A DNA stretch of 64,000 bases from an uncultured Actinomycetes bacterium (lineage in GTDB: Bacteria > Actinomycetota > Thermoleophilia > Solirubrobacterales > Solirubrobacteraceae), in assembly GCA_963830405.1 (NCBI GenBank), contig CAWHMB010000004.1, positions 317,940 through 381,939 of the forward strand, read 5' to 3'. This document shows, piece by piece, positions 1,662 through 63,841 of this stretch. Made by a program: the position numbers and the translations under genes. The notes beneath the pieces are model-generated. The model did not search any database. It was not told the DNA's origin and worked only from the letters and a program-made list of their open reading frames with translations. Within the stretch, counting starts at the first letter, position 1, and every line of letters begins with the position of its first letter.

Positions 1662-1678
1662 TCACCCAAATCAGGCGA
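1662..1678. promoter_or_regulatory. palindromic operator-like motif (2 mismatches)
   Basis: (CA)TCACCC-AAATC-AGGCGA(TG), intergenic. Confidence 0.55.
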
Positions 1679-1691
1679 TGCGTAACGACAC

Positions 1692-1844
1692 GTGTTGTTC
1701 GACCCGAACAACTGGTCGAAGACGAGCACGCAACTGCTGGAGCACCCCAACGTCCGGGCGACCGCGGCCAACTACCTTGTGGATCAGCTCTATGCCAACG
1801 ATAACGTCGCCGGGCTGATCAAGCAGGCGTTCCCCGGCGGGCCC
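1692..1844 (+). pseudogene. remnant of SHOCT-tailed membrane protein (paralogue of 57463..58905)
   Basis: LFDPNNWSKTSTQLLEHPNVRATAANYLVDQLY aligns by eye to LNTDNWTNTSSQLLRDKEIQTAVSAYTVNQLF; similarity ends at the DUF2252 stop. Confidence 0.6.
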
Positions 1845-3275
1845 TCACACCCCCGTCTGCGCGACGATCCTCCCGGACCTGACGGCCTTTGCCAGGGCCT
1901 TGTGGTCCTGCTCGTTCTGATCCGAGTACGCTCTGGAGAACTCGAGGACCGCCCGGTCGAAGGCGGAACTTTTACCGAGGTATGCGGCGATGGCTACTCG
2001 GTCGCCGCTGCGGGCGTGGGCGCGGGCGAGCGTCCAGCCGCACAGCCTGCCGTACGCGGTCATGCCCCGCGGGACCATCTGCTCGATCTCCGCCGAGCCC
2101 TTCCAGTCCTTGAGCTGCCGGCCGTAGAAGTCGCGAGCGACTCCGTCCAGGCCCGCGCTCACGTGCACCCACCCGAGGAAGATGTCGCTGGTGGCCTGCA
2201 TCAGCAGCTGTCCGGTGACCACCCGCTGACCGTGGTTCTTAAAGACGCTCTTGCCGACGTGTTCCTCCAGCACCGATGCTTCGGCCTCCTTTAGCTGCAA
2301 GAAGAGCGGATCATCCCGATCGCGGCCGGACAGCAACGCGATCCACGCCCGGGTGCCGACGCTTCCGACGCCGACAACCTTCCGCGCGAAATCCGAGAGC
2401 TGATATTGCTCGAGTAGCCCGCGCCTGGCGGACTCCAACGACCGGCGGTACGTCTGGATCAGCTCGTGCAGGTCTTCGAACACTTCGTCCAGCTCGGGCT
2501 CCGGAATAAGCGCGCGCAGCGGGACGATGAGCGGCGACTGATCGACGATCTCGGCACGGCCGTCGACGCGCTGTGTCAGCTTCGAGAACGCGGACATGCT
2601 GTCGCGCGTGCGCGCCTTCGCGAGCGTCTTCTTCGTGCGCTTGACCATCGAGCTCTTGAACTGGGAGGCGTGTTCCCGTAGCAAGGGTTCGATCTCCAGG
2701 CGCGCATACCAGACCGCGAGGTTTTCCATCCCCGCAAAGGTCCGCATGGCGCCGCGGTACTGGGCGACGGTGTCGAGCACGATCCGGTCCTGAGCCTTGA
2801 CCCTATAGCCGTTGTCGCGTGCCGCGATCAACATGCTCGCGGCGAGGCGCTTTACGTCCCACTCCCACGGCCCGGGGAGTGTCTCGTCGAAGTCGTTGAT
2901 GTCGAACACGAGCCGCCGCTCGGGTGAGGCGAAAACGCCGAAGTTCGACAGGTGCGCATCCCCGCAACACTGTACGTTCAGACCTGAGCGCGGTGTCCCT
3001 GCAAGATCATGAGCCATGATCTTGGCCGCCCCCCGGTAGAAGGTGAAGGGCGAGACCAGCATTCGCCCATAGCGAATCGGGACGAGCTCGGGCAAACGAG
3101 TCCTCGCCTGGTCCTCGAGCAGCTCGATCGGGTCGGCGCGATCTGCCGGCGCCTCGAACTCGGCATGACGGGATCTCGGTACCTCAGCGCGCGCTGCCTT
3201 GCCACGTGCTATCCGCTCTGCCACCGTAAGGTGAGGCGGATCGGCGGTTCGCGCTCGCTTGGCAGTCGTAGCCAC
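1845..3275 (-). CDS. DUF2252 family protein (copy 1, intact)
   Basis: RYGRMLVSPFTFYRGAA, CCGDAHLSNFG, FDINDFDE, KVVGVGSVGTR, RQLKDWKGS; GTG start at 3275 chosen because the longer ORF to 3314 overlaps the operator motif. Confidence 0.9.
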   Translation of the reverse strand: MATTAKRARTADPPHLTVAERIARGKAARAEVPRSRHAEFEAPADRADPIELLEDQARTRLPELVPIRYGRMLVSPFTFYRGAAKIMAHDLAGTPRSGLNVQCCGDAHLSNFGVFASPERRLVFDINDFDETLPGPWEWDVKRLAASMLIAARDNGYRVKAQDRIVLDTVAQYRGAMRTFAGMENLAVWYARLEIEPLLREHASQFKSSMVKRTKKTLAKARTRDSMSAFSKLTQRVDGRAEIVDQSPLIVPLRALIPEPELDEVFEDLHELIQTYRRSLESARRGLLEQYQLSDFARKVVGVGSVGTRAWIALLSGRDRDDPLFLQLKEAEASVLEEHVGKSVFKNHGQRVVTGQLLMQATSDIFLGWVHVSAGLDGVARDFYGRQLKDWKGSAEIEQMVPRGMTAYGRLCGWTLARAHARSGDRVAIAAYLGKSSAFDRAVLEFSRAYSDQNEQDHKALAKAVRSGRIVAQTGV

Positions 3276-3310
3276 GATCAGCCAGCGTGGCAGAACCGGG
3301 TAGCGATCCA

Positions 3311-3327
3311 TCACCCGATGCGGGTGA
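3311..3327. promoter_or_regulatory. palindromic operator-like motif (exact)
   Basis: TCACCC-GATGC-GGGTGA in divergent gap. Confidence 0.75.
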
Positions 3328-3338: not shown

Positions 3339-3355
3339 TCATCCATTCCGGATGA
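3339..3355. promoter_or_regulatory. palindromic operator-like motif (exact)
   Basis: TCATCC-ATTCC-GGATGA, 28 bp after previous copy. Confidence 0.75.
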
Positions 3356-3395
3356 CGACGATGGCCGCCCGGCGGGCGATACTGGCCCGCGGTCG

Positions 3396-6767: not shown

Positions 6768-6855
6768 ATGTCCGAAGCATCCCTCTCGGGTGCCGAGGGA
6801 CATCGCCCGGATCAGGTGACGCCTACCAGCCGGCATCTCGCTTCGTTCATGGTGA

Positions 6856-7705: not shown

Positions 7706-8926
7706 TCAGGCCGCAAATCGGTCCGCCAGCGTCGAGGTGAGGCCAGGAAGACCGCCCGTCGCGGCGGCCCAGGAACGCTGCCGATCCGCCCCATTGACCT
7801 CTGCCAGTCCCCGAACCTGATCGAGCTCCACCGAGCAGCCGAGGGCGGCTGCGTGTGCTTGGCACCTCGCGATTAGGGCCTCAGCGAGCGCTCGAACCGG
7901 CACCAGGCGGCGCTTCACCGGGTCGACCAATTGGGCATCCAGCCCGTCACGAGCAGCGAGGAAGCAGTTCTCCGCCAGAACTACTGACTCGACGTCGCCC
8001 TGCTTCGGCTTGCCCTCGAGAACCTGCCGCGCCAACGACTGAACCAACGCGATAAGAGGCGCGGTATCCGCAACAGTAGATTGCGCGTCCATCAACCGAA
8101 CCTCCACCGTTCCGAGCCGCGGCTGCAGGCGGACATCCCACCACAGAAAGCTCGGATCGGGCAGTGCACCCGAGGCGATTAGCGGGTCTACCGCCGCGAC
8201 ATAGTCCGTATAGCCGGTAAACCGCCGAAGCGTCCCGGTGCGGGGGAAGCCATGGAAGATCGCCGTCCGTGCGGAGGCGAATCCGCTGTCGCGCGCGTCG
8301 CAGAAGGGGGAGTTGGCAGACAGCGCGAGCAGCACCGGGAGAACGTCGCGGATGCCGTTCAGCAGCCGGATCGCGTCCTCAGGATCCGGAACGCCAACAT
8401 GCACATGAAGCGCCATCGTCGGTGCTCTGCGCACGAGCGAGCGCATCGACTCGGAGACCGCTCGGTAGCGCGTCGCGCCTGAGACCCGGGCTTCGTGTGT
8501 ACGCGCCATGGGATACGTCCCTGCACAAGCCGCGGTCAGACCGATTTCGCCCAGCTCGCTAGCCAGCCGGGAGCGCAGGCCTGCAAGCTCCGCCGCAGCC
8601 CTGGCGACGTCCAGGTGGATGCCCGTGTTCAACTCGATAACCGCCGCGTGGGTCTCCGGACAGGTGTGCTCAGCGAGATCCGTTGGGAGTCCCGAAAGCA
8701 CTCGGTCACTGGACTCCGCTAGCGAGTGGTCCGACGGCCGTAGGAGCATCAGCTCCTCCTCCACTCCAATCGTGTACTGCCGCTCCGCTCCGCGGCTCCA
8801 CCGCGCCCAGGTCGGCAGGGCGTCCGGACTCAGGCCGTTGCGCCCAAACACCGGCTCGGGGGAGAGCAACTCGACGTGACCGTCGGATGTCACCCCGAGA
8901 CGCTCGCTCCGCTCGTCAGGCATCAC
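7706..8926 (-). CDS. carboxylate-amine ligase, glutamate-cysteine ligase family 2 (YbdK-like)
   Basis: YTIGVEEELML, ALHVHVG, LALSANSPF, WWDVRLQPRLGTVEVRLMD. Confidence 0.85.
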   Translation of the reverse strand: MMPDERSERLGVTSDGHVELLSPEPVFGRNGLSPDALPTWARWSRGAERQYTIGVEEELMLLRPSDHSLAESSDRVLSGLPTDLAEHTCPETHAAVIELNTGIHLDVARAAAELAGLRSRLASELGEIGLTAACAGTYPMARTHEARVSGATRYRAVSESMRSLVRRAPTMALHVHVGVPDPEDAIRLLNGIRDVLPVLLALSANSPFCDARDSGFASARTAIFHGFPRTGTLRRFTGYTDYVAAVDPLIASGALPDPSFLWWDVRLQPRLGTVEVRLMDAQSTVADTAPLIALVQSLARQVLEGKPKQGDVESVVLAENCFLAARDGLDAQLVDPVKRRLVPVRALAEALIARCQAHAAALGCSVELDQVRGLAEVNGADRQRSWAAATGGLPGLTSTLADRFAA

Positions 8927-8998
8927 ACATCCGATACTTCGGGCTTCCCACGCGCTTTAGGATCCGCAGGACGATAAGCGCCCCCGGTCGCTCCTACG

Positions 8999-9015
8999 TC
9001 ACCCCGATGGGATGA
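8999..9015. promoter_or_regulatory. palindromic operator-like motif (exact)
   Basis: TCACCC-CGATG-GGATGA upstream of the ligase gene. Confidence 0.75.
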
Positions 9016-9026: not shown

Positions 9027-10496
9027 CTAGGCGTGTCGTGCGGCCGGATCAACTGCCTGTGGGACGGTCGGCTCAGCCGTGTCCGGCTGCTCCTCGGGAT
9101 TGGCCGAGAGCAGGAGAGCAGCTCCGAGGCCGATCAGCGCAAGGCCGGCGAGCACGAGCATCGCAAGGACGTAGGACTTGTTGCCGGTGGCGAGTTCTGA
9201 AACGAGGATCGTCCCCGCGATCGCCGTGCCCAGTGACGAGCCGAGGTTGGAGACGCTACGGGAGAGCCCAGAGATCTCGCCCTGCTTTTGCTCCGGAAAG
9301 CTGGACTGCACGATGTTGACCGATGGAGTCAGCATGACCCCTAGGCCAATGCCAACCACCGCCAGACCGGGTACGAAGGCCCAGACGCTCGACGAGGCCT
9401 TTACGAACGCGAGCAGAAGCCCGATGCCGGCGATCGTGACCACGAAGCCCGTGCGGATCAGCGTCCTCTGCGCGTATTTCTTCGCGAGTCGCTCAGCAGC
9501 AAGGGAGGAGATGAGGATCCCCGCCGTGGCCGCAGTGAAGATAACCCCAGTCTTGATCGCGGTGAAGCCGCGGACCGTCTGCAAGAAGACCGAGACGACG
9601 AACGTGGTTCCCATGAGCAGCAGCCATTGGATGTTCTGAGTGACGAGCCCGAGGTTGGAAGTGCGGTTGCGGAACAGACTGGTGGAGAGCAGCGGCTCCT
9701 TTCCGGCTCGTTCGCTCGATCGGGTGTGAAGGAAGAACCAGAGCAGGAATGCGGCTCCGAGTGCCAGGAATATGACCAACAAGGTGTTGTTGTTGCCTGC
9801 TTGCAGGATCCCGATGACGAGCAAGAACATGCCGCCCGCGGAGAGGATCGCGCCGACAATGTCGAACGGGCGCGTCGGGTCTGGCGGTATGGGGTCGGTG
9901 AGCTTGAGGGCGAGGTAGATAATCGTCGCCACAACAGCGGCTTGGAGCAGGAACGACGCTCTCCAACTGATTGTCGTGGTGATGAGGCCTCCGATTAGCG
10001 GGCCCGCAGCGGCGCCGATCCCGGCCGCGCCGCTGATGATCCCGAAGGCTCGGGCGCGCGACTGAAGGTCGCTGAAGGCGAGCGTCGCGAGGATGTAGAT
10101 CGGCGGAATCATCAACGCGGAGCCCACTCCTTCGAAGCCCGAGTAGCCGACGATCAATACGCCCAGCGTCGGCGCGAGTGCGGCGATCACGGCTCCGATT
10201 CCGTATAGGGTGAGGCCGCCGATCAGGCAGCGCTTGCGACCCTGAATGTCAGTCAGTTTGCTGCCGGGGATCATCAGGGCCGCCATGCACAGCAGAAAGA
10301 GCGTGATTGCGGTCTGCACGCCATGGATCGTGGTGTCGAGATCCTTGCTGATGTTGTTGATCGCGACGTTCATATTCGAGCCGGCGAAGCTTGCGACGAA
10401 CTGGGTTAGGGCCAGCGGAACGAGCATCTTCCGGGGCGAAATGCCGGAGCTCGTCGCGTTTGCGGTGCCAGGCTTCGGTGCAGAGTTCTCAGTCAA
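9027..10496 (-). CDS. MFS transporter, 14-TM DHA2-like
   Basis: GSKLTDIQGRKR loop motif, EGVGSALMIP, GPLIGG, many TM helices. Confidence 0.9.
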   Translation of the reverse strand: MTENSAPKPGTANATSSGISPRKMLVPLALTQFVASFAGSNMNVAINNISKDLDTTIHGVQTAITLFLLCMAALMIPGSKLTDIQGRKRCLIGGLTLYGIGAVIAALAPTLGVLIVGYSGFEGVGSALMIPPIYILATLAFSDLQSRARAFGIISGAAGIGAAAGPLIGGLITTTISWRASFLLQAAVVATIIYLALKLTDPIPPDPTRPFDIVGAILSAGGMFLLVIGILQAGNNNTLLVIFLALGAAFLLWFFLHTRSSERAGKEPLLSTSLFRNRTSNLGLVTQNIQWLLLMGTTFVVSVFLQTVRGFTAIKTGVIFTAATAGILISSLAAERLAKKYAQRTLIRTGFVVTIAGIGLLLAFVKASSSVWAFVPGLAVVGIGLGVMLTPSVNIVQSSFPEQKQGEISGLSRSVSNLGSSLGTAIAGTILVSELATGNKSYVLAMLVLAGLALIGLGAALLLSANPEEQPDTAEPTVPQAVDPAARHA

Positions 10497-10541: not shown

Positions 10542-11393
10542 TCAAACGGTGACTGCGGCCCTCACGGGAGGCTTGACTCTGAACGGCCGGAGCTGGTCAT
10601 CGCCGATGCCGACGACTCCGTAGCTTCCTTCGGGTACTTCGTTCCAGGCGCCGGGAAGGTCACCGACGGGCTCCGAGAGCACCAGCCGTGCGTCGTCTGA
10701 GAGCTGTTGCAGGACTTCCCGCTCTGGATAGAGGACCCTCAGAGTCCGGACGTCGCGTGAGAAAAACAAAGAGCGCGACTTGCCCTCGCTCGAGTAGCGA
10801 AAGGCCCAAAGACGCTCGCCATCGGTCGTCGCGATCGTGCCCTGGAACGGATACCTGACGCCGCGTTGGGCCCCAGTCCCCTCGACTAGGCCGATCGCCT
10901 GCGCAACCGCCTCCGGTGGATTGTCCTCGAGCCCGAAGGTCAACGCTAGATAGAACAGCAGCTCGGTGTCGGTCTGTCCCTTGATCTCGGGAAAGAGCGA
11001 TTCGTCGATCGCCAGGACTAGGTCGCGCTTGATCAAATCGAGCCCGTCAATGAATCCGTTGTGCATGAACAGCCAGCGGCCGTGGCGGAATGGGTGGCAG
11101 TTCGTCTGTTGAACAGCGGAGCCGATCGCGGCGCGGATGTGGGCGAGGAAGAGGTGGGAACGAATATGGCTGGAGACCTCGCGGAGGTTCTGGTCGTTCC
11201 ACGCCGGCTCGATGCTGCGGAACACTCCGGGGATCGGCTCGGTGTCGTACCACCCGATACCGAAACCGTCACCGTTTGTTGGCTCCGCGCCGAGCCGCGA
11301 ATGCAAGCTCTGGTCGATCAGTGAATGAGCCGGCGTGTAGAGGGCTTTATCAATCGGCACCGGCGAACCGGCGTAAGCGAGCCAACGGCACAT
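10542..11393 (-). CDS. class II glutamine amidotransferase (Ntn hydrolase, EgtC/YafJ-like)
   Basis: N-terminal MCR nucleophile, NGDGFG, HIRAA, NCHPF, MHNG, GQTDTE. Confidence 0.9.
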   Translation of the reverse strand: MCRWLAYAGSPVPIDKALYTPAHSLIDQSLHSRLGAEPTNGDGFGIGWYDTEPIPGVFRSIEPAWNDQNLREVSSHIRSHLFLAHIRAAIGSAVQQTNCHPFRHGRWLFMHNGFIDGLDLIKRDLVLAIDESLFPEIKGQTDTELLFYLALTFGLEDNPPEAVAQAIGLVEGTGAQRGVRYPFQGTIATTDGERLWAFRYSSEGKSRSLFFSRDVRTLRVLYPEREVLQQLSDDARLVLSEPVGDLPGAWNEVPEGSYGVVGIGDDQLRPFRVKPPVRAAVTV

Positions 11394-11838: not shown

Positions 11839-11850
11839 TCACCTAGGTGA
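11839..11850. promoter_or_regulatory. short palindrome TCACC-N2-GGTGA
   Basis: TCACC-TA-GGTGA; forms the last 4 codons of MalT-like gene 1. Confidence 0.5.
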
Positions 11851-47209: not shown

Positions 47210-47259
47210 GGGCGTGGTGCCGACCAGCCGCACGGCCCGCAGCGATTCTGGATCACAGA

Positions 47260-51381: not shown

Positions 51382-51398
51382 TCATCCTGATCGGATGA
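51382..51398. promoter_or_regulatory. palindromic operator-like motif (exact)
   Basis: TCATCC-TGATC-GGATGA in divergent gap. Confidence 0.75.
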
Positions 51399-51443
51399 CG
51401 TACCTCGCCCCACCCCTGGGACAATCGGCCTAGCTCATTTGCG

Positions 51444-53307: not shown

Positions 53308-53324
53308 TCGCCTGAACCGGATGA
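53308..53324. promoter_or_regulatory. operator-like motif (2 mismatches)
   Basis: (CA)TCGCCT-GAACC-GGATGA between CMD-B and MalT-like 3. Confidence 0.6.
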
Positions 53325-53482: not shown

Positions 53483-55666
53483 GTGCCCGGTGCAACGGCT
53501 CTGGACGGCGAGCTGGTGACAGTCGAGCATGCTCGGCAGCCGTTTGCGATCGACCTACCCGATGCCAAGTTCAGAGCTCCCCGGGCGTGCGGGGCTCTCG
53601 CTCGCCGCAGCGAGCTGCTTAGGCGTCTGGAACGCGAGCGGGCGCATCCCCTTGTCCTCTTGACGGCGCCGGCGGGTTACGGCAAGACGACCCTGTTAAA
53701 GCAGTGGACCGAAGAAAGTCGGCGCCCGTTTGCGTGGGTGATGCTCGACGAAGTCGACGGTGACTCGGAGGGCATCGCCGATTCGATTGCCTACACCCTG
53801 GCTACGATCGGAATCGAGCCCAGTCTCAGACGCAGCTTCGTGCTGGTCCTGGATGACGCTCATGTCGTCCCGCCCGGAGTTTTGAAAGACGCGCTGCTCG
53901 GCGTCCTGGGTTGGCTCCCCGAGGGCTGCCAGATAGCTGTGGCTTCGAGGTGCGCACCGCCGCTGGCACTCGGCCGAATGCGGGCTCAGCAGATGCTCGT
54001 CGAGCTAGGAGCCGGGGACCTCTCGCTGTCGGCCGTCGAGGCGAGATGTGCGCTTCGGGGGAGCGCGCTCGAGCTGGACTCGAACGCCGTCCAGGCCCTC
54101 GTCACTCGGGCGGAGGGGTGGCCTGCGGCAATCGGACTGGCGGCGACCTTGTGGGCCCAGCCTGAGCAGGCGGAGAACCCATCCGAGCTGAGGGGAGACG
54201 ACCACGCGATCTCCGAATACTTCCGCACAGAGGTGCTAGCCGGGCTTTCGGCCCCGGCTACCCGCTTCTTGATGCGCAGTTCGGTGCTCGAACGCTTGTC
54301 GGGAGAGCTGTGCGACGAGGTGCTTGAACGCAAGGGGTCGGCGAGTCTGTTGGCCGAGCTGGCACGTGCGAACCTGCCGCTGCGCACGGTCGATGCCAGC
54401 CACGAGTGGTATCGCGTCCACGGCCTGCTCCGAGAGATGCTGCAGACAGAGCTTCGGCGAACCGAGCCGGAGCTTCCCGCCGTGCTGCATAGGCGGGCGA
54501 GTGACTGGTGGCGCAGAGCGGGAGACATAGACCGCGCTATTGACCACGCCCGTAAGGGAGAGAATCTCAAGCTCACCGGTGAGCTTCTGTGGGCACACCT
54601 CCCCCGGTATTTGGGCGAGGGAAACAACCACATGGTCCAGGGCTGGCTGGAAGGAGTCGCAGCCGAGCGGATCAAGGGATGTGCGCCACTTGCGCTCGTG
54701 GCGGCACACAGTCATCTGGCGTCTGGTCGCGTTGCCGTCGCGGAGCAGTGGGCTCGGTCGGCGGCTGTCAGCTTTTCTGAGGCCAACGAGGGCCCGACCA
54801 GTCCCGAGCGGGCCGGCGTGGCCATGATCGAGGCGTGGAACGCACGCCATGGAGCAGCGGTGATGGGGGACGACGCACGTCGCGCGTATGAGCTGCTGCC
54901 CGCCGACAGTGCGTGGCGAGCGAGCTGCTGCTTCCTGCGTGGCACCGCGGCGCTGCTGATTGGCGACGAGGCCGAAGCTGAGCGGCACCTCGATGAGGGA
55001 CTGGCACGCGGCACCGTGCTGGCACCGATCACCGCGTCGTTGTGTCTTGCGCAGCTGGCCATCCTCGCCTCGCAGCGACATCAGACCGACTATGCGTCAG
55101 ACCTGGCCTGGCGCTCCCATTCCGTCGCCGACGAGCGCCAGCTCGGCGACTACCCCACCTCAGCACTGGTGTTGGCCGTCTATGCCGCGGCCGCCATGCG
55201 CGAGGGCCGCGTCGATGAGGCAAAGGCGACCGTGTCTCAATGTCTGGGCCTGCTCGATCGGCTCGACGATGTCGTCTGGCTCCGCTCCGAAGTTCTAATC
55301 CTGCTTGGGCGGGTCTCGCTAGCTCTCGGCGACGTTGCGCGCGCCCGCGAGCTACTCGCGGATGCTTCGCGATACGCACGTCGAGTGCGCGGCGTGGCCG
55401 CCTTCCAGCGGTGGTTCGATGATGCCTGGAACGAGTTTGATGCACGCGCTGAGGTAGCGCTTACCGGAGTCGCCGCGCTGACGACCGCAGAGCTTCGAGT
55501 TCTCCGGTTCCTGCCGACGCACTACTCATTCCACGAGATCGCGGTACGGCTGCACGTATCGTCGAATACCGTCAAGACTCACGTCCACGCCGTGTATCGC
55601 AAGCTCGATGCGTCCTCCCGCTCACAAGCGGTCGCACGGGCGCTCGATTCCGGGCTCCTGAGCTAG
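53483..55666 (+). CDS. MalT-like STAND ATPase/LuxR-HTH regulator 3
   Basis: DAKFRAP, APAGYGKTT, VLDDAH, EGWPAAI, SSNTVKTHVHAVYRKL. Confidence 0.9.
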   Translation: MPGATALDGELVTVEHARQPFAIDLPDAKFRAPRACGALARRSELLRRLERERAHPLVLLTAPAGYGKTTLLKQWTEESRRPFAWVMLDEVDGDSEGIADSIAYTLATIGIEPSLRRSFVLVLDDAHVVPPGVLKDALLGVLGWLPEGCQIAVASRCAPPLALGRMRAQQMLVELGAGDLSLSAVEARCALRGSALELDSNAVQALVTRAEGWPAAIGLAATLWAQPEQAENPSELRGDDHAISEYFRTEVLAGLSAPATRFLMRSSVLERLSGELCDEVLERKGSASLLAELARANLPLRTVDASHEWYRVHGLLREMLQTELRRTEPELPAVLHRRASDWWRRAGDIDRAIDHARKGENLKLTGELLWAHLPRYLGEGNNHMVQGWLEGVAAERIKGCAPLALVAAHSHLASGRVAVAEQWARSAAVSFSEANEGPTSPERAGVAMIEAWNARHGAAVMGDDARRAYELLPADSAWRASCCFLRGTAALLIGDEAEAERHLDEGLARGTVLAPITASLCLAQLAILASQRHQTDYASDLAWRSHSVADERQLGDYPTSALVLAVYAAAAMREGRVDEAKATVSQCLGLLDRLDDVVWLRSEVLILLGRVSLALGDVARARELLADASRYARRVRGVAAFQRWFDDAWNEFDARAEVALTGVAALTTAELRVLRFLPTHYSFHEIAVRLHVSSNTVKTHVHAVYRKLDASSRSQAVARALDSGLLS

Positions 55667-55704: not shown

Positions 55705-56082
55705 TCAGTTTCCATCCCAGCCCTCGATCTCGATGTCGTACCCGATAGCCAGCGCCAGTCGAGGAGCGGCGGCTACGACCCTTGCCGAGCCGACGACGGA
55801 GGCCACGGTCGCGAGGACCTCGACGATCTCCTCGTCCTCTGCTCCCGCTTTGAGCGCGAGCTCGACCGCCCACCGCAGCGAGGTCGTCGAGCCACCCGCA
55901 GCCAGCAGCGCGGCCAAGTGGATGAGCGCGCCAGTCCGGGGTGACAAGGCGCGCGCAGGTGGGGACTGAGGTGACCATTTCGCGGCTGAGGGGACCGCGA
56001 GCACCGACCGCAGCAAGTTCTCATCGCTGGCGGCCAGTCCACGAAGCAGCTGCTCGGTCCCGATTGCGCGCGCGGGGCTCAC
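55705..56082 (-). CDS. CMD/AhpD-fold protein, subfamily B (convergent with MalT-like 3)
   Basis: LLRGLAASDE...SLRWAVELA...PRLALAIGYDIEIEGWDGN. Confidence 0.7.
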   Translation of the reverse strand: MSPARAIGTEQLLRGLAASDENLLRSVLAVPSAAKWSPQSPPARALSPRTGALIHLAALLAAGGSTTSLRWAVELALKAGAEDEEIVEVLATVASVVGSARVVAAAPRLALAIGYDIEIEGWDGN

Positions 56083-56120: not shown

Positions 56121-56137
56121 TCGCCCCGATCGGGTGA
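56121..56137. promoter_or_regulatory. palindromic operator-like motif (1 mismatch)
   Basis: TCGCCC-CGATC-GGGTGA(TG) in divergent gap. Confidence 0.7.
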
Positions 56138-56189: not shown

Positions 56190-56639
56190 TTGGTCGTGGA
56201 CCCCAAAATCGCGCGTAGGCTCGCTTCTCGCGGTCATCGAGGGCAGCGCACACGGTTTGGCGAGGCCGTCATCGAACACCTTCGACGAGTCGCAGCCGCG
56301 GTGCCGCCGGAAGCACAGCCCGTCGCGTGGCTACACGATCTGCTGGAAATGACCAGCATTAGCCGGTCTCGGCTGCGCGCTTCGGGCCTCACCGTCGCCG
56401 ACGAGCTGGCCTTGGACCTTCTCGCGCACCGCGCCGATGAATCCTACGACGCGTACGTCCTCAGAATCGCCGATGCAGCCGGCAGAGCCGGGTTGATCGC
56501 GCGGATGGTGAAGCTGGCCGATCTCGACGACCATCTCGCTCACAACCGGATTCCGGTCGGTGCTCCGCCGTACGCCTGGGCTCGCCGGTGCATGCTGGAG
56601 CGCCTGGACGCAGAGACTTCGACGGCAGTTGCAAGCTGA
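56190..56639 (+). CDS. small HD-domain protein (small alarmone hydrolase/Mesh1-like)
   Basis: HRGQ...IEHLRRVA...VAWLHDLLE...YDAYVLRI...VKLADLDDH. Confidence 0.65.
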   Translation: MVVDPKIARRLASRGHRGQRTRFGEAVIEHLRRVAAAVPPEAQPVAWLHDLLEMTSISRSRLRASGLTVADELALDLLAHRADESYDAYVLRIADAAGRAGLIARMVKLADLDDHLAHNRIPVGAPPYAWARRCMLERLDAETSTAVAS

Positions 56640-56641
56640 TC

Positions 56642-57340
56642 ATGACGACGACTGGCGACGCATTGCCGGCCGACGGGGGGCGCGAAAACGCTGCCCGTGG
56701 CCCCCGCTTCCGTTACTTCGTCGTGCTCGGGCTGATTTTGGGCTCCGTCGTGTTCTTGATCGGAGCACCAGCCGCTGACTGGTCGCGCGCCGTCGTCGCC
56801 GCGATCGAGGGGGCTGCCCTGGTTGTCACGATCGCAACGTCGCGCGAACGCGAGATCGTCCGCCGCCGGAGAGCGATCGCAGTCGGCCTGGCGATGACGG
56901 CGCTCGTCATGCTGATCGCGTTCGGCGAGCTTCCCCGCTCGCTCATCGCCCTGCTTGGTGTGTGCGTCACCGCGGGGATTCCGATCGCGCTCGTGCGAGG
57001 GCTGCTGCGGCTGTTTCGAAACGCAGGTGTGACGGTCCAGGCGGTGGCCGGTTCGCTCGCCATCTACCTGTCGATCGGGCTGATCTTCGCGTGGGTGATC
57101 GGCTTCGTGGCGCAGGTCGAGGACACGCCGTACTTCGCCCAGCACACCAGCGGTACGCAAGGCGACAAGGTCTACTTCAGCTTCACCGTGCTGACGACCA
57201 CGGGCTTCGGCGACTTCACTCCCGCGACGGCGGTCGGGCACGCGATCGCGGTGATCGAGATGCTCACCGGCCAGCTGTATCTGGTCACGGTCATCGGACT
57301 GGTGATCGGAAGCTTCACGGCACGTCGCCGCTTGCCGTGA
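56642..57340 (+). CDS. K+ channel pore-domain membrane protein
   Basis: YFSFTVLTTTGFGDFTP, IEMLTGQLYLV; paralogue of 1..447. Confidence 0.85.
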   Translation: MTTTGDALPADGGRENAARGPRFRYFVVLGLILGSVVFLIGAPAADWSRAVVAAIEGAALVVTIATSREREIVRRRRAIAVGLAMTALVMLIAFGELPRSLIALLGVCVTAGIPIALVRGLLRLFRNAGVTVQAVAGSLAIYLSIGLIFAWVIGFVAQVEDTPYFAQHTSGTQGDKVYFSFTVLTTTGFGDFTPATAVGHAIAVIEMLTGQLYLVTVIGLVIGSFTARRRLP

Positions 57341-57462
57341 ACGGGGGCTCCTCGCTCGCGGCCGTGGCCCGGGGGGCCGGCACCCCAAGGTTCGTGGTGC
57401 GCACCTCGATTGAGGGACGGGCAGGCTGGCTTGCCAGGACGCCGCTGCGGACGGATGCTCGC

Positions 57463-58905
57463 ATGATGGGCGAACAGCCCCCCAGTGGCTCGCCGGATCC
57501 CGTTGCGTCCGCGACCACAGCTCGGGCACCGGCGCCTCGTCGGAACCGAATCCTGATCGGCAGCCTGTTCGTACTTGCCACCGTCGTGGGGTTCTTCGCA
57601 GTCCTCGCCGTGTGGACGAACCGGCAGGCGCTCAATACCGACAACTGGACCAATACCAGTTCGCAACTGCTCCGGGACAAGGAGATCCAGACGGCGGTCT
57701 CCGCCTACACGGTGAACCAGCTCTTCAAGTCGGGGGTCCCTCAAGCGGAGATCAAGGCCGTTCTGCCGACGAAGTTGCAGCCCGTCGCCGGTCCGGCCGC
57801 GGCGGGGCTGCAGCAACTCGCCGGGCAGCTCGCACCGCGGGTCCTGGCCTCGCCACAGGTCCAGACGGCCTGGCGTGAGGCCAACCGCGCGGCGCACAGG
57901 ACCCTCCTGAAAATACTCAGCGGCGGCAACTCGCTCGCCACGACTCACGGTGGGGTGGTCACGCTCAATCTCCGCGCAATCGTCGACCAGCTGGCGAGCG
58001 CCCTGGGCGTGCAGTCGCAGGTAGCCGCTGTGCAGCAAAAGCTCAAAGCAAATGCCGGCACGGTGAGAGCGACGGCGAAGAAGGCCGGCATCACCTTACC
58101 TCCGTCGAGCGGCCAGCTGGTGATCCTTCGCTCCAACCAGCTCAGGACGGCGCAGGACATCGGCAGCGGCATCAACGGTTTGGCGCTCGTGCTTCCGCTA
58201 ATCGCCTTTGCGCTGTTCATCCTTGCCGTGTGGCTATCCAGAGGTCATCGCCAGCAGGCACTGAGGCTGACGGGCTGGTGCTTCGTTGCCATCGGCATAT
58301 TGGATCTCGTGATCCGGCGCATCGCCGGTAACGAGTTAGTCAACGGACTGGTCAAGAATCCGGCGAATAAGCCGGCAGCTCACCACGCGTGGGCGATCGG
58401 CACGACGTTGCTGTACGACATCGCGGCCGCGCTGGTCGTGTACGGGCTGGTCCTTGTCGTCGCAGCGTGGCTCGGGGGCCGGACGCGGCCAGCGGCAGCT
58501 CTGCGGCGCGCGCTCGCTCCGACTCTGCGTGAACGTCCCGCTGCCGGCTACATCGCGGTGTATGTCGGGCTGCTGCTTGTGATCTTCTGGGGTCCGACAC
58601 CGGCCACCCGGCAGATCGCCTACATAATCGGGTTCATCGTCTTGCTCGCCGTCGGTATGCACGTTCTTCGCAGTCAAACGGCCAGGGAGTTCCCGACGGC
58701 GCAGCACGGGGACACGATGCGCTCGATGCGGGCTTGGAACGAGCGGCGTCAGCAGCGCGTCTCGCAGACCCCGATGCAGCTGCAAGAAGAGCGGAACGGC
58801 GGCCGCGTCGCTGAACTGGAGCGGCTGGCAACGCTGCACGACAACGGTGCGCTTACTGATGAGGAGTTCGCGGCAGAGAAAGCCATGCTCATGCATCAAC
58901 CGTAA
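57463..58905 (+). CDS. multi-pass membrane protein with C-terminal SHOCT domain
   Basis: N-terminal TM, large soluble region, 5 TMs, LERLATLHDNGALTDEEFAAEKAML; start inferred. Confidence 0.75.
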   Translation: MMGEQPPSGSPDPVASATTARAPAPRRNRILIGSLFVLATVVGFFAVLAVWTNRQALNTDNWTNTSSQLLRDKEIQTAVSAYTVNQLFKSGVPQAEIKAVLPTKLQPVAGPAAAGLQQLAGQLAPRVLASPQVQTAWREANRAAHRTLLKILSGGNSLATTHGGVVTLNLRAIVDQLASALGVQSQVAAVQQKLKANAGTVRATAKKAGITLPPSSGQLVILRSNQLRTAQDIGSGINGLALVLPLIAFALFILAVWLSRGHRQQALRLTGWCFVAIGILDLVIRRIAGNELVNGLVKNPANKPAAHHAWAIGTTLLYDIAAALVVYGLVLVVAAWLGGRTRPAAALRRALAPTLRERPAAGYIAVYVGLLLVIFWGPTPATRQIAYIIGFIVLLAVGMHVLRSQTAREFPTAQHGDTMRSMRAWNERRQQRVSQTPMQLQEERNGGRVAELERLATLHDNGALTDEEFAAEKAMLMHQP

Positions 58906-58985
58906 GTCACAGAAGCGCTCAGGAGAAGCTCGCAACCGACCCGGGCGGCTTATCACGTTGCGCGAGCCAACCCGGATGCATAATT

Positions 58986-59681
58986 GTGAGGATGGTTCTG
59001 CGCGTGGCGCTAGCCGACGACAGCTACCTGGTCCGTGAGGGATTGCGCCAGGTGCTGGGTGGAGTCCAGGAGCTGGAACTGATCGCAATATGCGATGACG
59101 TCTACTCTCTCGTCGAGGCGATTGATAACGATCGCCCGAATGTCGTCGTAAGCGATATCCGCATGCCGCCTTTCCGCGACCGCGAGGGCATTCGTCTGGC
59201 CGGCCAGCTTCGTGAGACTCATCCAGAGATCGGCGTGGTGATCCTCAGTCAGTACGCCGATCCCAGCCTCGCACTGGACTTGTTTCGGTCCGGGTCCGAG
59301 GGGCGGGCGTATCTACTCAAGGAGCGGGTCGCAGAGCGCGGCGAGCTGGTGAACGCGATCCAAGCGGTCGCGGACGGTCGTTCGGTGGTCGACCCGAAGA
59401 TCATCGACGGGCTGATCGCCCACCGCGTGCGTTCGTCGCAATCCCCACTCGATGAGCTCACGGCGCGCGAACGCGAGGTGCTCGCGGCCGTTGCGGCCGG
59501 CAAGAGCAACGCTGCGATCGCGGCTTCGCTGTTTCTGACCAAGCGAGCCGTCGAAAAACATATAAATGCGATCTTCATGAAACTGAATTTGCGCGAGTCC
59601 GAAGACACGAGCCGGCGCGTAATGGCCGCGCTGATATTCCTCGCCGATGAAGACATGCAAGCGGGTTCGCCCGAGATCTGA
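58986..59681 (+). CDS. NarL/FixJ family response regulator
   Basis: LADDS, VSDIRMPP, YLLKE, LTAREREVL...GKSNAAIA...AVEKHINAIFMKL. Confidence 0.9.
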   Translation: MRMVLRVALADDSYLVREGLRQVLGGVQELELIAICDDVYSLVEAIDNDRPNVVVSDIRMPPFRDREGIRLAGQLRETHPEIGVVILSQYADPSLALDLFRSGSEGRAYLLKERVAERGELVNAIQAVADGRSVVDPKIIDGLIAHRVRSSQSPLDELTAREREVLAAVAAGKSNAAIAASLFLTKRAVEKHINAIFMKLNLRESEDTSRRVMAALIFLADEDMQAGSPEI

Positions 59682-59701: not shown

Positions 59702-59718
59702 TCATCCCTTTCGGTCGA
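59702..59718. promoter_or_regulatory. operator-like motif (2 mismatches)
   Basis: TCATCC-CTTTC-GGTCGA(TGC). Confidence 0.6.
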
Positions 59719-59792
59719 TGCGGGCCCGCTGGGTTGGCTCGAGAGTAGATCGGTAGTGCAGCCGTCGATCGATCTTCCGAAGGGAGAGCCAC

Positions 59793-60140
59793 ATGCCCGT
59801 AGTAGGCGCGGATACACACGAAACCCTGGCAGGCGTCGCAACCGGCGATATGACGATGCTCGAGGAGGCCCTCGGGATTCGGGAGGCGTTGGAGGAGCGC
59901 GCCGGTCTCGACGCGCGGTCGTTTGCGCTGGTAAAGATCGCCGCGCTGATCGCACTCGATGCGCCGCCGGCGTCATATGCGTGGCAAATCGGCAACGCGC
60001 TCGCCGCCGGCGTGACGCCTGAAGACATCCTTGGGGTGCTGCGTGCGGTGGCGCCACAGGTCGGCGGTCCCAAGGTCGTCGCGGCCGCGCCCGAGATCAT
60101 GGTGGCGCTCGGACTGGCACTCCCCGAGGGCGCCGAGTAG
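59793..60140 (+). CDS. CMD/AhpD-fold protein, subfamily A copy 3
   Basis: MPVVGADTH...FALVKIAALIALDAPPASY...VGGPKVVAAAPEI; RBS AGGGAGA. Confidence 0.75.
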   Translation: MPVVGADTHETLAGVATGDMTMLEEALGIREALEERAGLDARSFALVKIAALIALDAPPASYAWQIGNALAAGVTPEDILGVLRAVAPQVGGPKVVAAAPEIMVALGLALPEGAE

Positions 60141-60150: not shown

Positions 60151-60427
60151 ATGCCCTTACTGCGACGTCGTCCTCTGCTTCGTGGGTCGGCGCGTCCTTG
60201 CTGGGCCGACGAGGTGGGCAATTCTGGGTGCGCTGGACACCACGCTTTCCGCCCTTGACGCCTCGCTGAGCTCGCCGCTGGCTCAGGAGGCCGGCGAGCG
60301 GATCAGGACCAGCTCGGTGATGGCCGACGTGATCGAGCCGACGCTGCGGCGCACGATCGATAGCCCGGAAGCCGAGCGCCTGATCCGAGAACTCGTCGAC
60401 AGCCGCCTCATAAGCTATCCCGTATGA
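60151..60427 (+). pseudogene. fused remnants: SHOCT-gene start plus piece of RDD-partner gene
   Basis: MPLLRRRPLLR at 60151, then TLRRTIDSPEAERLIRELVDSRL resembling ALERALASESAARLVDSLFDSGL of 1079..1618. Confidence 0.55.
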
Positions 60428-60443: not shown

Positions 60444-60890
60444 TATGCCGGGGCCGTCACCCGCACGATCGCGATCGTGCTCGACGCCTTGCGGATCAAC
60501 GTCGTCGCGCTCGCCGTGACCGGCGCCCTGCTAGTCATGCGCTCCGGGTTCGGCGTTACGGGCAAGCACCACGACGTAGACGCCGTAATCGCCGCCGCCC
60601 TATTCGCCGTCTGGGTCGTCTCATATTTCGTCGTCTTCTGGTCCACCACCGGGCAGACACCCGGTAACCGGGTCATGCAGATCCGCGTACTGCGCTCCGA
60701 CGGCGGGCGGCTGCGGCCGTACCAGGGATTCATTCGGCTCGGCGGGATAGTGCTCTCGCTGCCGCTGTTCTGGGGCTACCTGCCGATCCTTACGAGCGCT
60801 CGCCGAAGAGGCGTGCCCGATGCTCTCGCGGGCACCGTGGTGGTAGTTACCGACAACGATGGCATGCCTGGGCAGCCCCGGCCCACGTAA
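60444..60890 (+). CDS. RDD family protein, copy 2 (native start apparently lost)
   Basis: YAGAVTRTIAIVLD at 60444, WSTTGQTPGNRVMQIRV, RRRGVPDALAGTVVV; in-frame TAA at 60411 and first start codon (GTG 60477) lies after the YAG motif. Confidence 0.7.
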   Translation, partial: YAGAVTRTIAIVLDALRINVVALAVTGALLVMRSGFGVTGKHHDVDAVIAAALFAVWVVSYFVVFWSTTGQTPGNRVMQIRVLRSDGGRLRPYQGFIRLGGIVLSLPLFWGYLPILTSARRRGVPDALAGTVVVVTDNDGMPGQPRPT

Positions 60891-61588: not shown

Positions 61589-61687
61589 TGATCCTGGGGA
61601 ACGGACGCGGATCGGAGCGTTGCTCGGCTGCTCACCGGTTCCAGGCTGACGTTACTAATCCGACCGTGGTGCCTTTGGACCGATCGT

Positions 61688-63538
61688 TCAAACGACGGCG
61701 GATCTACGCCGCAGCTCCAGTGGTGAGGCTGGGATGGTTGCTGCGATCGTGGTGCCCCGGTCAGGACCAGACTGAATCCTGAGCCTCCCTCCGACAGCGG
61801 CTAGCCGGTCGCGCAGATTTCTGAGGCCGGTGCCTGGTCGCTGATTCTCTGCATCAAAGCCAAGGCCGTCGTCGTGGACCTCGAAATTCAGCTCCTCGTC
61901 TTGCCAAACCCTGACGGAGACGCAGGTCGCACCTTCAGCGTGCTTGACCGCGTTCTGCACGGCCTCCGAGCAAGAGAAGTAGAGCGTCGTTTCAATCGGG
62001 CGCGAGTACCGGCCGAGCCCTTCCGCGTAGACAGTCGTGGGAAGGCCTGTGGCCCTGGCGAGCATTGTCAGCGCTCCTCGCAGTCCGGTCTCCGCGAGCT
62101 CCGTGGGGTAGATCCCGTGGGCGAACGACCGGACCTCGTCGATCGTCGCATCGACCTCCTGTCCCAACGCACGGACTAGATCTCCTCCGGCGGCGTCCTG
62201 ACAGCCGATCTGCTCGGCGGCCAGTGCCAGCTTGATCCGCAGTGAGACGAGACGCTGCTGCGCACCATCGTGTATATCTCGCTCAATCTTCCGCCGCTCG
62301 CGACGTTCGGCATTGACGCCGACCGCCAGTGCTTCGGCGAGTTCCTTGAGCGAGGAACGCAGCTTTTCGCTGAGTCGATAGTTCTCGAGCGCGGCCAGCG
62401 CGTAGGATCCGGCCGTCTCGACGAGTCCCTGGTCCTCGGAGAGCGCTGGGTCGTGGACGACCGCGACCCGCCAGCTACCGTTCGCGATCTCGGTCACGGC
62501 ATGCTCGATCCCATCCTGGGGCATCGGGACCTGCTTGCCGGATTCGTCAAGCCACGCTCCGCCGTCATCCGGGAATGAGCGCAGGATCTGTAACGACGGG
62601 TCCTCGAGCGCGTCGGCCATCGCGCGGCCGGCCCCTAACTGATCGGCGCCGGTTTTCAGTTCTCGCGCGATTTGATCCAGCACCTTGGCGGCGAACAGGC
62701 GTCGATAAAGTCGGCCCGCTGCGGCTGCCAGCGCGACGGCGGGGAGGGACAGCACGTAGATCCAGCTCAGGACATGCAAGCTCGCAGTATCAGGGCCGGC
62801 CGCCCGGGCACGGAAGTAAACGGCGAGGATGACGACTTGAGCGACCGCGATCAGCGCAATCGGGCTGTTCATCCGGCGCAGCAGCGCTCCCGAGTTCCGC
62901 GCGCGCTGAATCACCATTGCCGCCACCGCGATAAGCACCGCGACCGTCAGGAGCTCGCGGAGCGGTTCGACGACGTTGGCCACCAGCGCCGGCGTCGAAT
63001 TGGCAAGCGCAAACGCGTTTCGCGGGCAGCCCCCCGTGCACATCGACCACGGCGAGGGGTTCGGGTACTGAGCAATCAGGGCTGTTGGCAGGTAGAGCAG
63101 CGCGACGAGAAGCGCCCCGGCGCCGAATAGTCGCCTGGAAACAGTCTCAGTCAGTCGCCCCGATGGGTAGCTGAGCAGCAGGTACACGACCGCCAGCTCG
63201 GCGAGCCATTGGCTCACCCGACCGGCGCTGTAGACGGTGGATTCGGGTGATCCGGCGAGCGCCGAGAGCGACCACACGAGCCCGCAGGCGATCAATACGC
63301 GCGCGAAACGGAGATCCTGTCCCCGCGCCAGATTGTAGAGCCCGACGCCAAACACGGCTGCCGCGCCGGACAGGAACACAGCTAGTGCGATGCTGCGGCT
63401 GCCTTGCGGTGCGCTGAGGAGCGCCGACCCAACGACGACGGTCGTGCCCAGGCAGACGGTGAGCGGCATCGCCAACCGCTTCGCGATCGGCACCGGAGGG
63501 CGCAACGCGAGCGAGGTCTGCTGAGTTAGCTCGTCCAC
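61688..63538 (-). CDS. membrane sensor histidine kinase (HisKA_3/NarX-like)
   Basis: About 7 TM, IERDIHDGAQQRLV H-box, EAVQNAVKH, DDGLGF, GTGLRNLRDRL; start uncertain (ORF open to 63721). Confidence 0.9.
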   Translation of the reverse strand: MDELTQQTSLALRPPVPIAKRLAMPLTVCLGTTVVVGSALLSAPQGSRSIALAVFLSGAAAVFGVGLYNLARGQDLRFARVLIACGLVWSLSALAGSPESTVYSAGRVSQWLAELAVVYLLLSYPSGRLTETVSRRLFGAGALLVALLYLPTALIAQYPNPSPWSMCTGGCPRNAFALANSTPALVANVVEPLRELLTVAVLIAVAAMVIQRARNSGALLRRMNSPIALIAVAQVVILAVYFRARAAGPDTASLHVLSWIYVLSLPAVALAAAAGRLYRRLFAAKVLDQIARELKTGADQLGAGRAMADALEDPSLQILRSFPDDGGAWLDESGKQVPMPQDGIEHAVTEIANGSWRVAVVHDPALSEDQGLVETAGSYALAALENYRLSEKLRSSLKELAEALAVGVNAERRERRKIERDIHDGAQQRLVSLRIKLALAAEQIGCQDAAGGDLVRALGQEVDATIDEVRSFAHGIYPTELAETGLRGALTMLARATGLPTTVYAEGLGRYSRPIETTLYFSCSEAVQNAVKHAEGATCVSVRVWQDEELNFEVHDDGLGFDAENQRPGTGLRNLRDRLAAVGGRLRIQSGPDRGTTIAATIPASPLELRRRSAVV

Positions 63539-63824
63539 CGGTAGGACCCCGGGCTCTGAGGCGGGGACCCACAACACTGAGCAGCCCGGCGGCGACTCAC
63601 GAAAGCAGTGCGTACACGGCGGTACCTGGTCATGTGGGTCCCATTGGTATGTGGAATCGACTACGAACCGAGGCGGTGTAGCCGGCCTGCGACCGTTAGC
63701 CCACTTCGCATCTGCGCGCAATGCCCCAGACGATCAGAGACCCCCTATGAAGCATCGCCTCCAAAAGGCTACCACTGCCAACTGGCTCGCCCAAAAATGC
63801 GGAATGGTGGGGTTCTGGCGCAGC

Positions 63825-63841
63825 TCATCCTTTTGGGGTGA
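63825..63841. promoter_or_regulatory. palindromic operator-like motif (exact)
   Basis: TCATCC-TTTTG-GGGTGA(TG) upstream of DUF1269 copy 2. Confidence 0.75.

Follow-up and report, generated by a model that had tools for sequence, protein, structure and literature searches.

Here we describe a 64-kb stretch of DNA (64,000 nucleotides; hereafter, the window) from an uncultured Actinomycetes bacterium of the family Solirubrobacteraceae (class Thermoleophilia, order Solirubrobacterales; assembly GCA_963830405.1, contig CAWHMB010000004.1, positions 317,940 to 381,939 of the forward strand), in which the 17-bp palindrome TCAYCC-N5-GGRTGA is a real repeated element that marks approximately 28 predicted promoters of one large, putatively co-regulated gene island. 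The island encodes three MalT-like proteins of the LuxR family's large ATP-binding regulators (LALs), which combine a signal transduction ATPase with numerous domains (STAND) and a LuxR-type helix-turn-helix (HTH). We propose, with a probability of roughly 0.78, that one or more of these LALs bind the palindrome in the promoters as class II activators. The original prediction, made from the sequence alone, had assigned the palindrome to an unnamed regulon. This type of regulon has in fact already been published, with the same motif and a MalT-like activator, for Actinoplanes sp. SE50/110 (Droste et al. 2020, PMC7567727), and the window is a new, distant example of that known system.

Eleven exact copies of the palindrome start at 3311, 3339, 8999, 14201, 21827, 38263, 42097, 45826, 47260, 51382, and 63825, exactly where the original prediction had placed them, compared with 0.03 copies expected from 100 dinucleotide shuffles of the window, none of which contained more than one. 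Allowing up to two mismatches raises the number of matches to 35, compared with an expectation of 9.4 ± 3.2, which implies that a few of the two-mismatch matches arise by chance. All 15 previously listed copies with one or two mismatches were recovered. A symmetrised weight matrix of 23 bp, built from these 26 copies on the assumption of a fixed 5-bp spacing, identifies 28 sites in the window, namely the 26 input copies and two further ones at 6803 and 18361. All 28 sites score at least 15.5 bits and none falls between 10 and 15 bits; therefore, the set of sites is discrete and is not the tail of a continuum. The 5-bp spacing, which is built into the matrix, fits all 151 sites called in the window and in related loci. 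The supposed freedom of the spacer in sequence did not hold, because it is partly conserved (consensus G-A-W-T-C, with A or T at the central base in 96% of the copies). The full consensus is TCAYCC-GAWTC-GGRTGA. The fourth arm position prefers C/G (TCACCC/GGGTGA, approximately 58%), and the flanks beyond ±3 bp of the palindrome are not conserved. The GC content of the window is 63–68% (approximately 66% on average), close to the earlier guess of about 67%.

Genes were called with a codon-usage model and annotated with Pfam, and their starts were corrected using Pfam matches and homologue alignments. The correction identified the gene at 1845–3314 (minus strand) as DUF2252 and placed several starts downstream of the longest open reading frame. 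With the corrected starts, 26 of the 28 sites are intergenic, in agreement with the original prediction, in which almost all copies were intergenic or within about 150 bp of a start; intergenic DNA makes up approximately 17% of the window. Each of the other two sites (35733 and 45826) overlaps the 3′ end of a gene, at its last codons, and is located upstream of the gene that follows. A site is present upstream of roughly 30 of approximately 40 transcription units. The approximately 64 genes do not form a single pathway. They encode two DUF2252 proteins, DUF1269, six small CMD/AhpD-like proteins, three SfLAP membrane proteins, two PRC-barrel proteins, YccF, DUF202, and DUF7144; transport proteins (two Na+/H+ exchangers, one ClC channel, and three K+-channel-like proteins); enzymes (diacylglycerol kinase, PAP2, GCS2 ligase, class II amidotransferase, arylsulfatase and its maturase, the formylglycine-generating enzyme (FGE), and oxidoreductases); and the regulators, i.e., the three LALs, a NarL-type response regulator, and a HisKA_3 kinase.

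The promoter geometry was analyzed in 185 site–gene pairs from the window and 80 related loci (designated by L numbers below). Measured from the palindrome centre, TANNNT begins 5, 17, and 4 times at +30, +31, and +32, respectively, and 0–2 times at every other offset. The more relaxed nAnnnT is found at +30 to +32 in at least one orientation at 130 of 151 sites overall and at 26 of the 28 in the window, compared with 14% of 16,091 random intergenic positions and 7–19% at other offsets of the same sites. It occurs in both orientations at 17 sites only, indicating that most sites serve one direction. In sites oriented by this −10 element, both arms are near-invariant (distal arm: T 99%, C 96%, A 90%, C 96%, C 88%), and T (76%) and G (95%) occupy +9/+10 on the promoter-proximal side only. 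The suggestion that the arms extend to CA...TG thus stands for the proximal TG, while the distal counterpart is weak and the extension is one-sided. The −10 element begins 22 nt past the motif, which places the predicted transcription start site (TSS) approximately 35 nt from the motif end. If the −10 occupies −12 to −7, the centre of the palindrome would lie at approximately −43, with the proximal arm spanning −40 to −35. The TG would then be at −34/−33, the position expected for the TTG of a −35 hexamer at 17-bp spacing. Promoters that depend on a class II activator have this architecture, with the site beside a residual −35 "TG". Consequently, the earlier term "operator" is not apt, and the palindrome is better described as a putative activator site that overlaps the −35 region inside promoters than as a repressor operator.

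The predicted TSSs at 24552, 42149, 36822, 53274, 56086, and 14166 fall on, or no more than 5 nt from, the start codons at 24552, 42149, 36824, 53272, 56082, and 14161, respectively, and start codons most often lie 40–49 nt from the site centre. Many island mRNAs, at least six, are therefore predicted to be leaderless. Leaderless mRNAs are common in Actinomycetota. Close pairs, e.g., 3311/3339 and 47193/47260, are predicted back-to-back divergent promoters.

We propose a scheme for the island in which a dimeric activator with a LuxR/GerE-type HTH would bind the palindrome centred approximately 43 bp upstream of the TSS, followed by the residual −35 "TG" and, after 17 bp, by a weak sigma-A-type −10 (nAnnnT). 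The activator would be one or more of the three LALs, which, once activated by a ligand and ATP, would contact RNA polymerase at the −35 region from the palindrome. Approximately 28 promoters would then be switched on together, covering most of the window genes, among which are the LAL genes themselves and a two-component system.

The closest precedent is the Actinoplanes region. In Actinoplanes sp. SE50/110, 41 of 51 neighbouring genes (ACSP50_3900–3950) are co-regulated, and a motif detected with MEME, 5′-TCATCC-5nt-GGATGA-3′, lies upstream of 17 mapped TSSs, overlapping the −35 region, with 34.4 ± 1.0 nt between its 3′ end and the TSS (Droste et al. 2020, PMC7567727). Deletion of malT (ACSP50_3915) lowers the expression of 42 of the 51 genes and its overexpression raises that of 39; no regulators other than two MalT-like LALs are encoded there. 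Four further Micromonosporaceae have the motif and parts of the region, and the authors note that the motif agrees with the core of the E. coli MalT box, GGA(T/G)GA. Among the cargo they describe are SHOCT, three proteins with DUF1269, diacylglycerol kinase, a class II glutamine amidotransferase, and MFS transporters; A. missouriensis additionally has DUF2252 (PMC7567727).

The window shares with the Actinoplanes region the palindrome TCATCC-5nt-GGATGA, a layout of one site per promoter over at least 50–60 kb of many short operons, and more than one LAL gene. The predicted promoter geometry of the window, with the motif over the −35 region and approximately 35 nt from motif to TSS as judged from the −10, would agree with the 34.4 nt mapped in Actinoplanes. 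SHOCT, DUF1269, diacylglycerol kinase, class II glutamine amidotransferase, MFS, and DUF2252 are also common to both, as are numerous small membrane proteins without a known function. The identical motif, the matching predicted distance, and the shared families identify the window as a distant homologue of the Actinoplanes region. The two differ in several respects: the host of the window is a soil metagenome-assembled genome (MAG) of the Thermoleophilia (Solirubrobacterales) and not a member of the Micromonosporaceae; its arms favour C/G at the fourth position; and it has three LALs, one of them frameshifted, together with a NarL/HisKA_3 two-component system that is absent from the Actinoplanes region. 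The six CMD and three SfLAP proteins, the sulfatase with FGE, the ClC channel, the two Na+/H+ exchangers, and the K+ channels distinguish the window cargo, whereas the arginine deiminase operon, glucosidase, and amylase of the Actinoplanes region are not found in the window. Literature searches on Solirubrobacter promoters and on LuxR proteins with GGGTGA returned nothing relevant.

The island organization is also found in relatives of the window. The closest DUF2252 homologues are from uncultured Solirubrobacterales MAGs (up to 80% identity), and the matrix finds 4–11 sites per 21 kb, nearly all intergenic, in eleven Solirubrobacterales loci and no sites in several others of the order. Conservation upstream of orthologues, which had been proposed as a check on the palindrome, was observed in Solirubrobacterales for DUF1269 (9 of 12), the holin-phosphodiesterase (4 of 7), diacylglycerol kinase (6 of 16), and ClC (5 of 12), and also for several CMD and LAL orthologues. 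Outside the order, 31 of 43 sites keep the −10 spacing; the site-bearing loci belong to an Ilumatobacteraceae MAG (Acidimicrobiia), where the sites are beside DUF2252, and to Streptomyces, Kitasatospora, Streptosporangiaceae, and other Actinomycetes. While the window itself is site-dense from end to end, dense stretches (median spacing approximately 2 kb) in L010, L012, L016, L021, and L084 adjoin site-free stretches of 7.8–14.5 kb that encode purD, ABC1 kinase, SpoIIE phosphatase, a transposase, MacB/FtsX, and PGI/6PGD/RpiA, suggesting that the sites mark islands and not every promoter of a genome. L004 and L082 (OY969904.1, 2,361,068–2,414,396) are located 10 kb apart on one complete MAG chromosome and have 9 and 6 sites, respectively; therefore, the island in that genome extends over at least 53 kb.

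Two features of these loci bear on how the islands change. In L002, the sites at 8954 and 14214 lie in 33-bp sequences that are identical to each other (gcTCATCCTTTTTGGGTGAtgcggggg). Each precedes the gene of a DUF1269 paralogue that is 85% identical to the window protein, which points to a recent duplication of gene and promoter together. In L021, a DDE transposase (DUF772/DDE_Tnp_1, 12415–13818) is located exactly at the end of the site-dense stretch and hints that the islands are mobile or rearranged. Horizontal transfer has also been proposed by the authors of the Actinoplanes study (PMC7567727).

Among the encoded regulators, the LALs, which the original prediction had listed with the NarL-type regulator as possible binders, are the best candidates. 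The genetics of malT in Actinoplanes speaks for them. LAL2 aligns to residues 15–414 of E. coli MalT (8bob) with E = 1.9e-24, close LAL homologues are named "maltose regulon positive regulatory protein" by the Joint Genome Institute, and the half-site GGATGA is the same as the core of the E. coli MalT box, GGA(T/G)GA, which two papers quote. The recognition helix of LAL3 is close to that of LAL2 (SSNTVKTHVHAVYRKL vs. SVNTVKTQAHAIYRKL), and the DUF2252-adjacent LALs from Solirubrobacterales to Streptomyces have a common form of this helix, S(V/A/I)NTVKT(H/Q)...(V/I)YRKL. LAL1 is split by a frameshift and is either a pseudogene or an assembly error (a long-read homopolymer error). Outside Solirubrobacterales, sites were found in 7 of 8 loci with an adjacent LAL vs. 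16 of 51 without one, and three loci selected solely by LAL similarity have 6–8 sites per 22 kb and the same gene families.

The MalT regulon of E. coli and Klebsiella is thus similar to the island in the regulator family, to which LAL2 belongs, in the half-site, and in the placement of sites that overlap or replace the −35 of activator-dependent promoters. In E. coli, the boxes bound by MalT are asymmetric and grouped in arrays, direct repeats among them, and are often used together with CRP. The window promoters, in contrast, each have a single inverted repeat with a 5-bp spacer, and no maltose or maltodextrin genes were found among the Pfam-annotated window genes.

Several observations weigh against LALs as the binders. 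NarL-type response regulators with a GerE HTH occur in most of the Solirubrobacterales islands, and BldM, a NarL-family protein, recognizes the same TCACCC/GGGTGA half-sites. No correctly oriented site serves LAL2 or the LALs of L082 and L084, and no LuxR-type gene is present within 21 kb in the motif-rich L041, L029, L034, and L004. In the parts of the Actinoplanes report consulted here, it is assumed and not demonstrated that MalT binds the motif directly (PMC7567727). The sequencing runs found to hold the window sequence are soil metagenome DNA only, with no RNA runs among them. The recognition helices of the LALs and the response regulator do not favour either candidate binder. Small proteins with PAS and GerE HTH domains, which have no counterpart in the window, are encoded beside the LAL in L082 (13081–13719) and L084 (12656–13270); they are a third LuxR-HTH type and could compete for or share the palindrome.

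The same promoter architecture would result if the binder were the response regulator at 58986–59681, phosphorylated by the HisKA_3 kinase at 61688–63721, which is probably its partner, and if the LALs were regulon members or upstream inputs. We consider this unlikely. The protein combines a canonical receiver domain with a GerE HTH, the closest relative with a solved structure is DevR/DosR (E = 2.7e-21), and homologues are encoded in the motif-rich L009, L010, L012, L016, L021, L059, and L082–L084; in L010, L012, and L084, however, their genes are at or beyond the edge of the site-dense zone. In addition, the site-bearing Streptomyces, Kitasatospora, and Streptosporangiaceae loci L051, L058, L063, L066, L067, L071, and L077 have a LAL and no response regulator within 21 kb, L059 being the sole exception. 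In the Actinoplanes region, which has the same motif, the only two regulator genes both encode LALs, and deletion and overexpression of malT control the region.

BldM group I sites of Streptomyces venezuelae, TCACcCg...cGgGTGA, were footprinted with a homodimer of GerE-type HTH (Al-Bassam et al. 2014, PMC4125116). Their half-sites are the same as those of the window palindrome, but the BldM site (TCACcCgnncGgGTGA) is 16 bp long with 4 bp between the hexamers, one less than in the 17-bp window site, and BldM is an orphan NarL-family response regulator of development without an island organization. The recognition helix of the window response regulator (TKRAVEKHINAIF) differs from that of BldM. 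DosR/DevR of Mycobacterium tuberculosis and OsdR of Streptomyces coelicolor are GerE-HTH activators of clustered stress genes, and the window island encodes a DevR-like regulator with a HisKA_3 kinase. DosR activates a clustered dormancy regulon from palindromes near −43. The window response regulator, however, reads "RAVEKH" where DevR has "KTVKNY" in the alignment. The OsdR/DevR consensus is AGGGCCGATCGGCCCT, or GGGAC...GTCCC (PMC5069765); the window motif TCAYCC...GGRTGA is not of the GGGAC/GGGCC...GTCCC/GGCCC type, and the genes of these regulons (universal stress proteins, nitrate reductase, and hspX) are unlike the window content.

It is very unlikely that the right arm and the "TG" constitute the −35 of an alternative sigma factor, with incidental palindromy and no need for an activator. 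The fixed distance to a −10-like hexamer and the better conservation of the promoter-proximal flank would fit such a promoter, but the distal arm, which lies at approximately −51 to −46, where sigma region 4 would not reach, shows the same degree of conservation as the proximal arm. Furthermore, the nAnnnT −10 and the TG at −34/−33 resemble elements of the housekeeping sigma type, the Pfam annotation of the window genes revealed no gene for a sigma factor, and the Actinoplanes regulon depends on a LAL. A SigB/SigF-type promoter (GTTT...GGGTA) was also considered and rejected for its spacing, as were the motifs of CsoR, CRP, BldD, DosR, and OsdR, which differ in sequence or spacing.

That the palindromes are non-regulatory repeats, similar to repetitive extragenic palindromes (REPs) or miniature inverted-repeat transposable elements (MITEs), or RNA hairpins of terminators or 5′-untranslated regions, is hardly credible despite their being short, GC-rich, abundant, and intergenic with a possible 6-bp stem and 5-nt loop, because the flanks are unconserved beyond ±3 bp, no T-run follows the palindrome, the sites are upstream of predicted starts and so mostly outside the transcript, mixed arms (TCACCC...GGATGA, e.g., 42097 and 21827) give a C–A mismatch in RNA, upstream sites are kept for orthologues across classes while the surrounding DNA diverges, and the distance to a gene-oriented −10 is fixed at 22 bp. 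A search of the window with Rfam at gathering thresholds detected a tRNA-Leu only and no family on the palindromes. The original view that the palindrome is a dimeric HTH site defining a regulon, and not a REP or MITE, is thus borne out by the symmetric arms, the intergenic placement, the fixed −10 distance, the conservation at orthologues, and the site-free neighbouring DNA.

Our analysis extends a regulon known once, from an industrial Actinoplanes strain, to deep-branching uncultured soil Actinomycetota, with a reach that now includes Thermoleophilia, Acidimicrobiia, and several Actinomycetes families, including Streptomyces relatives. The motif, the −10 spacing, and part of the cargo are conserved across classes. 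No new mechanism is revealed; the new features are the partly conserved spacer, the one-sided TG as a −35 remnant, the predicted leaderless starts, and the presence of three LAL paralogues and a two-component system in one island. The promoter model (palindrome, TG, 17 bp, nAnnnT, often leaderless) can be used to annotate dozens of operons whose function is not known in bacteria abundant in soil, and it points to DUF2252, DUF1269, CMD, and SfLAP proteins as a functionally linked set. More speculatively, the regulon may be ancient in Actinomycetota (Thermoleophilia, Acidimicrobiia, and Actinomycetes) and not a Micromonosporaceae speciality spread by recent horizontal transfer, a possibility toward which we do not lean. 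Its core would comprise DUF2252, DUF1269, CMD, diacylglycerol kinase, and ion transport, and in Solirubrobacterales it would have grown to at least 28 promoters and several LAL paralogues with a common DNA site, through which different signals would converge on a single promoter set. If so, it would represent a general stress or dormancy response run by STAND ATPases instead of an alternative sigma factor.

Table 1 Predicted activator sites and regulator genes in the window. Strand of a site is the direction of the predicted promoter (a dot marks sites with no single direction); all TSSs are predicted, 7 nt past the −10 hexamer.
Feature	Position	Strand	−10 hexamer	TSS	Predicted targets and remarks
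Site	1662–1678	−	CATGAT 1634–1639	~1627	1079–1618 (hypothetical), 513–1082 (RDD)
Site	3311–3327	−	CACGCT 3284–3289	~3277	DUF2252 (1845–about 3233); back to back with 3339
Site	3339–3355	+	GATACT 3378–3383	~3390	holin_4_2/phosphodiesterase membrane protein gene ending 5444
Site	6803–6819	−	GATGCT 6776–6781	~6769	Na+/H+ exchanger (5490–about 6765), near-leaderless; absent from the earlier list
Site	8999–9015	−	TATCGT 8971–8976		GCS2 carboxylate-amine ligase 7706–8926
Site	14201–14217	−	GAACCT 14173–14178	~14166	LAL1, frameshifted N-terminus from 14161; probably also GATase gene 10542–11393 and MFS gene 9027–10496
Site	17026–17042	−	CACCAT 16998–17003		Diacylglycerol kinase 15651–16940; probably also DUF1269 14966–15478, CMD 14543–14908, and 14283–14540
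Weak site	17503–17519	.			Degenerate right arm GAAGGA; no −10 at canonical offset; function doubtful
Weak site	18361–18377	−	GACCAT 18333–18338		Upstream of PAP2 phosphatase (17714–about 18320); 15.5 bits; absent from the earlier list
Site	21827–21843	−	GACGCT 21799–21804		LOR-like 21413–21754, K+ channel 20749–21258, 19749–20762, 18694–19665; top window score, 27.1 bits
Site	24587–24603	−	GAACAT 24559–24564	24552	Pyridine-nucleotide disulphide oxidoreductase 23092–24552; TSS at start codon, leaderless
Site	31628–31644	+	GATTGT 31667–31672		CMD 31718–32065; weaker opposite-strand −10 may serve operon 25745–31493
Site	32843–32859	+	TACGCT 32881–32886	~32893	Hypothetical gene ending 33259, true start near 32896
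Site	35733–35749	+	TAGTCT 35772–35777		Points antisense into histidine-kinase remnant; no canonical −10 on the other side, towards LAL2 (33263–35677, minus)
Site	36771–36787	+	TAGCGT 36810–36815	36822	CMD-like 36824–37150, leaderless; second −10 AATATT on minus strand
Site	38263–38279	−	TAGCCT 38235–38240		SfLAP membrane protein 37446–38126
Site	38578–38594	+	CAAGGT 38617–38622		YccF 38662–39090
Site	39132–39148	.			Upstream of 39228–39794; degenerate left arm; orientation ambiguous, sole canonical −10 on minus strand
Site	42097–42113	+	TAGCTT 42137–42142	42149	ClC chloride channel 42149–43558; TSS at start codon, leaderless
Site	44767–44783	−	TACCGT 44739–44744	~44732	SfLAP (44055–about 44732, leaderless), DUF202 43569–43946
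Site	45826–45842	−	GATGAT at non-canonical +33		Upstream of FGE-sulfatase gene 44806–45684; overlaps last Na+/H+ exchanger codons
Site	47193–47209	−	GAGACT 47165–47170		Na+/H+ exchanger 45816–47126
Site	47260–47276	+	GAGCGT 47298–47303		Arylsulfatase 47363–49717
Site	51382–51398	+	GACAAT 51420–51425		PRC-barrel 51444–52091, SfLAP 52254–52919
Site	53308–53324	.	TAGCAT (minus), GAGGAT (plus)	53274 (minus)	Bidirectional; minus: leaderless gene 52922–53272; plus: upstream of LAL3 53483–55666
Site	56121–56137	.	GAGCCT (minus), GATGCT (plus)	56086 (minus)	Bidirectional; minus: CMD 55705–56082; plus: operon 56190–59681 (hypothetical gene, K+ channel, SHOCT membrane protein, NarL-type response regulator)
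Site	59702–59718	+	GAGAGT 59741–59746		CMD 59793–60140, 60182–60427, RDD 60477–60890
Site	63825–63841	+	GACGGT 63864–63869		Points to a gene starting past the window end; no canonical −10 towards histidine kinase gene
LAL1	11839–14161	−			MalT-like, frameshift-split: P-loop part (APPGYGKTT) 13583–14161, rest 11839–13836 in other frame
LAL2	33263–35677	−			Intact MalT-like STAND/LuxR protein (P-loop, WHD_MalT, TPR, GerE HTH); candidate binder
LAL3	53483–55666	+			Intact MalT-like regulator; candidate binder
NarL/DevR-type response regulator	58986–59681	+			REC and GerE HTH; island member, rival candidate binder
HisKA_3 histidine kinase	61688–63721	−			Multi-pass membrane N-terminus

The 64 kb are rich in paralogues, most of which, in the expanded families, have a promoter copy of their own. 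There are six CMD/AhpD-like genes (14543, 31718, 36824, 55705, 59793, and a weak one), three genes each for SfLAP, LAL, and K+-channel-like proteins, and two each for DUF2252, Na+/H+ exchanger, RDD, and PRC-barrel proteins. The second DUF2252 gene (49786–51271, minus strand) is split into open reading frames of 189 (50702–51271) and 299 amino acids (49786–50685), and site 51382 shows no canonical −10 (CGTGGT) on the side facing this gene, which may be a decaying paralogue. Within 44806–49717, the arylsulfatase (784 amino acids) and FGE genes flank a Na+/H+ exchanger gene, each behind its own palindrome promoter, and a sulfatase is also linked to sites in L077 and L083. The histidine-kinase remnant at 35641–36399 (minus strand) retains partial HisKA_3 and HATPase_c domains without a sensor or N-terminus. 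A tRNA-Leu(GAG) gene (41086–41172, minus strand) is located in the middle of the island beside genes for a receiver-only protein (41413–41823) and a PRC-barrel protein (40206–40757), and all three are without an upstream site.

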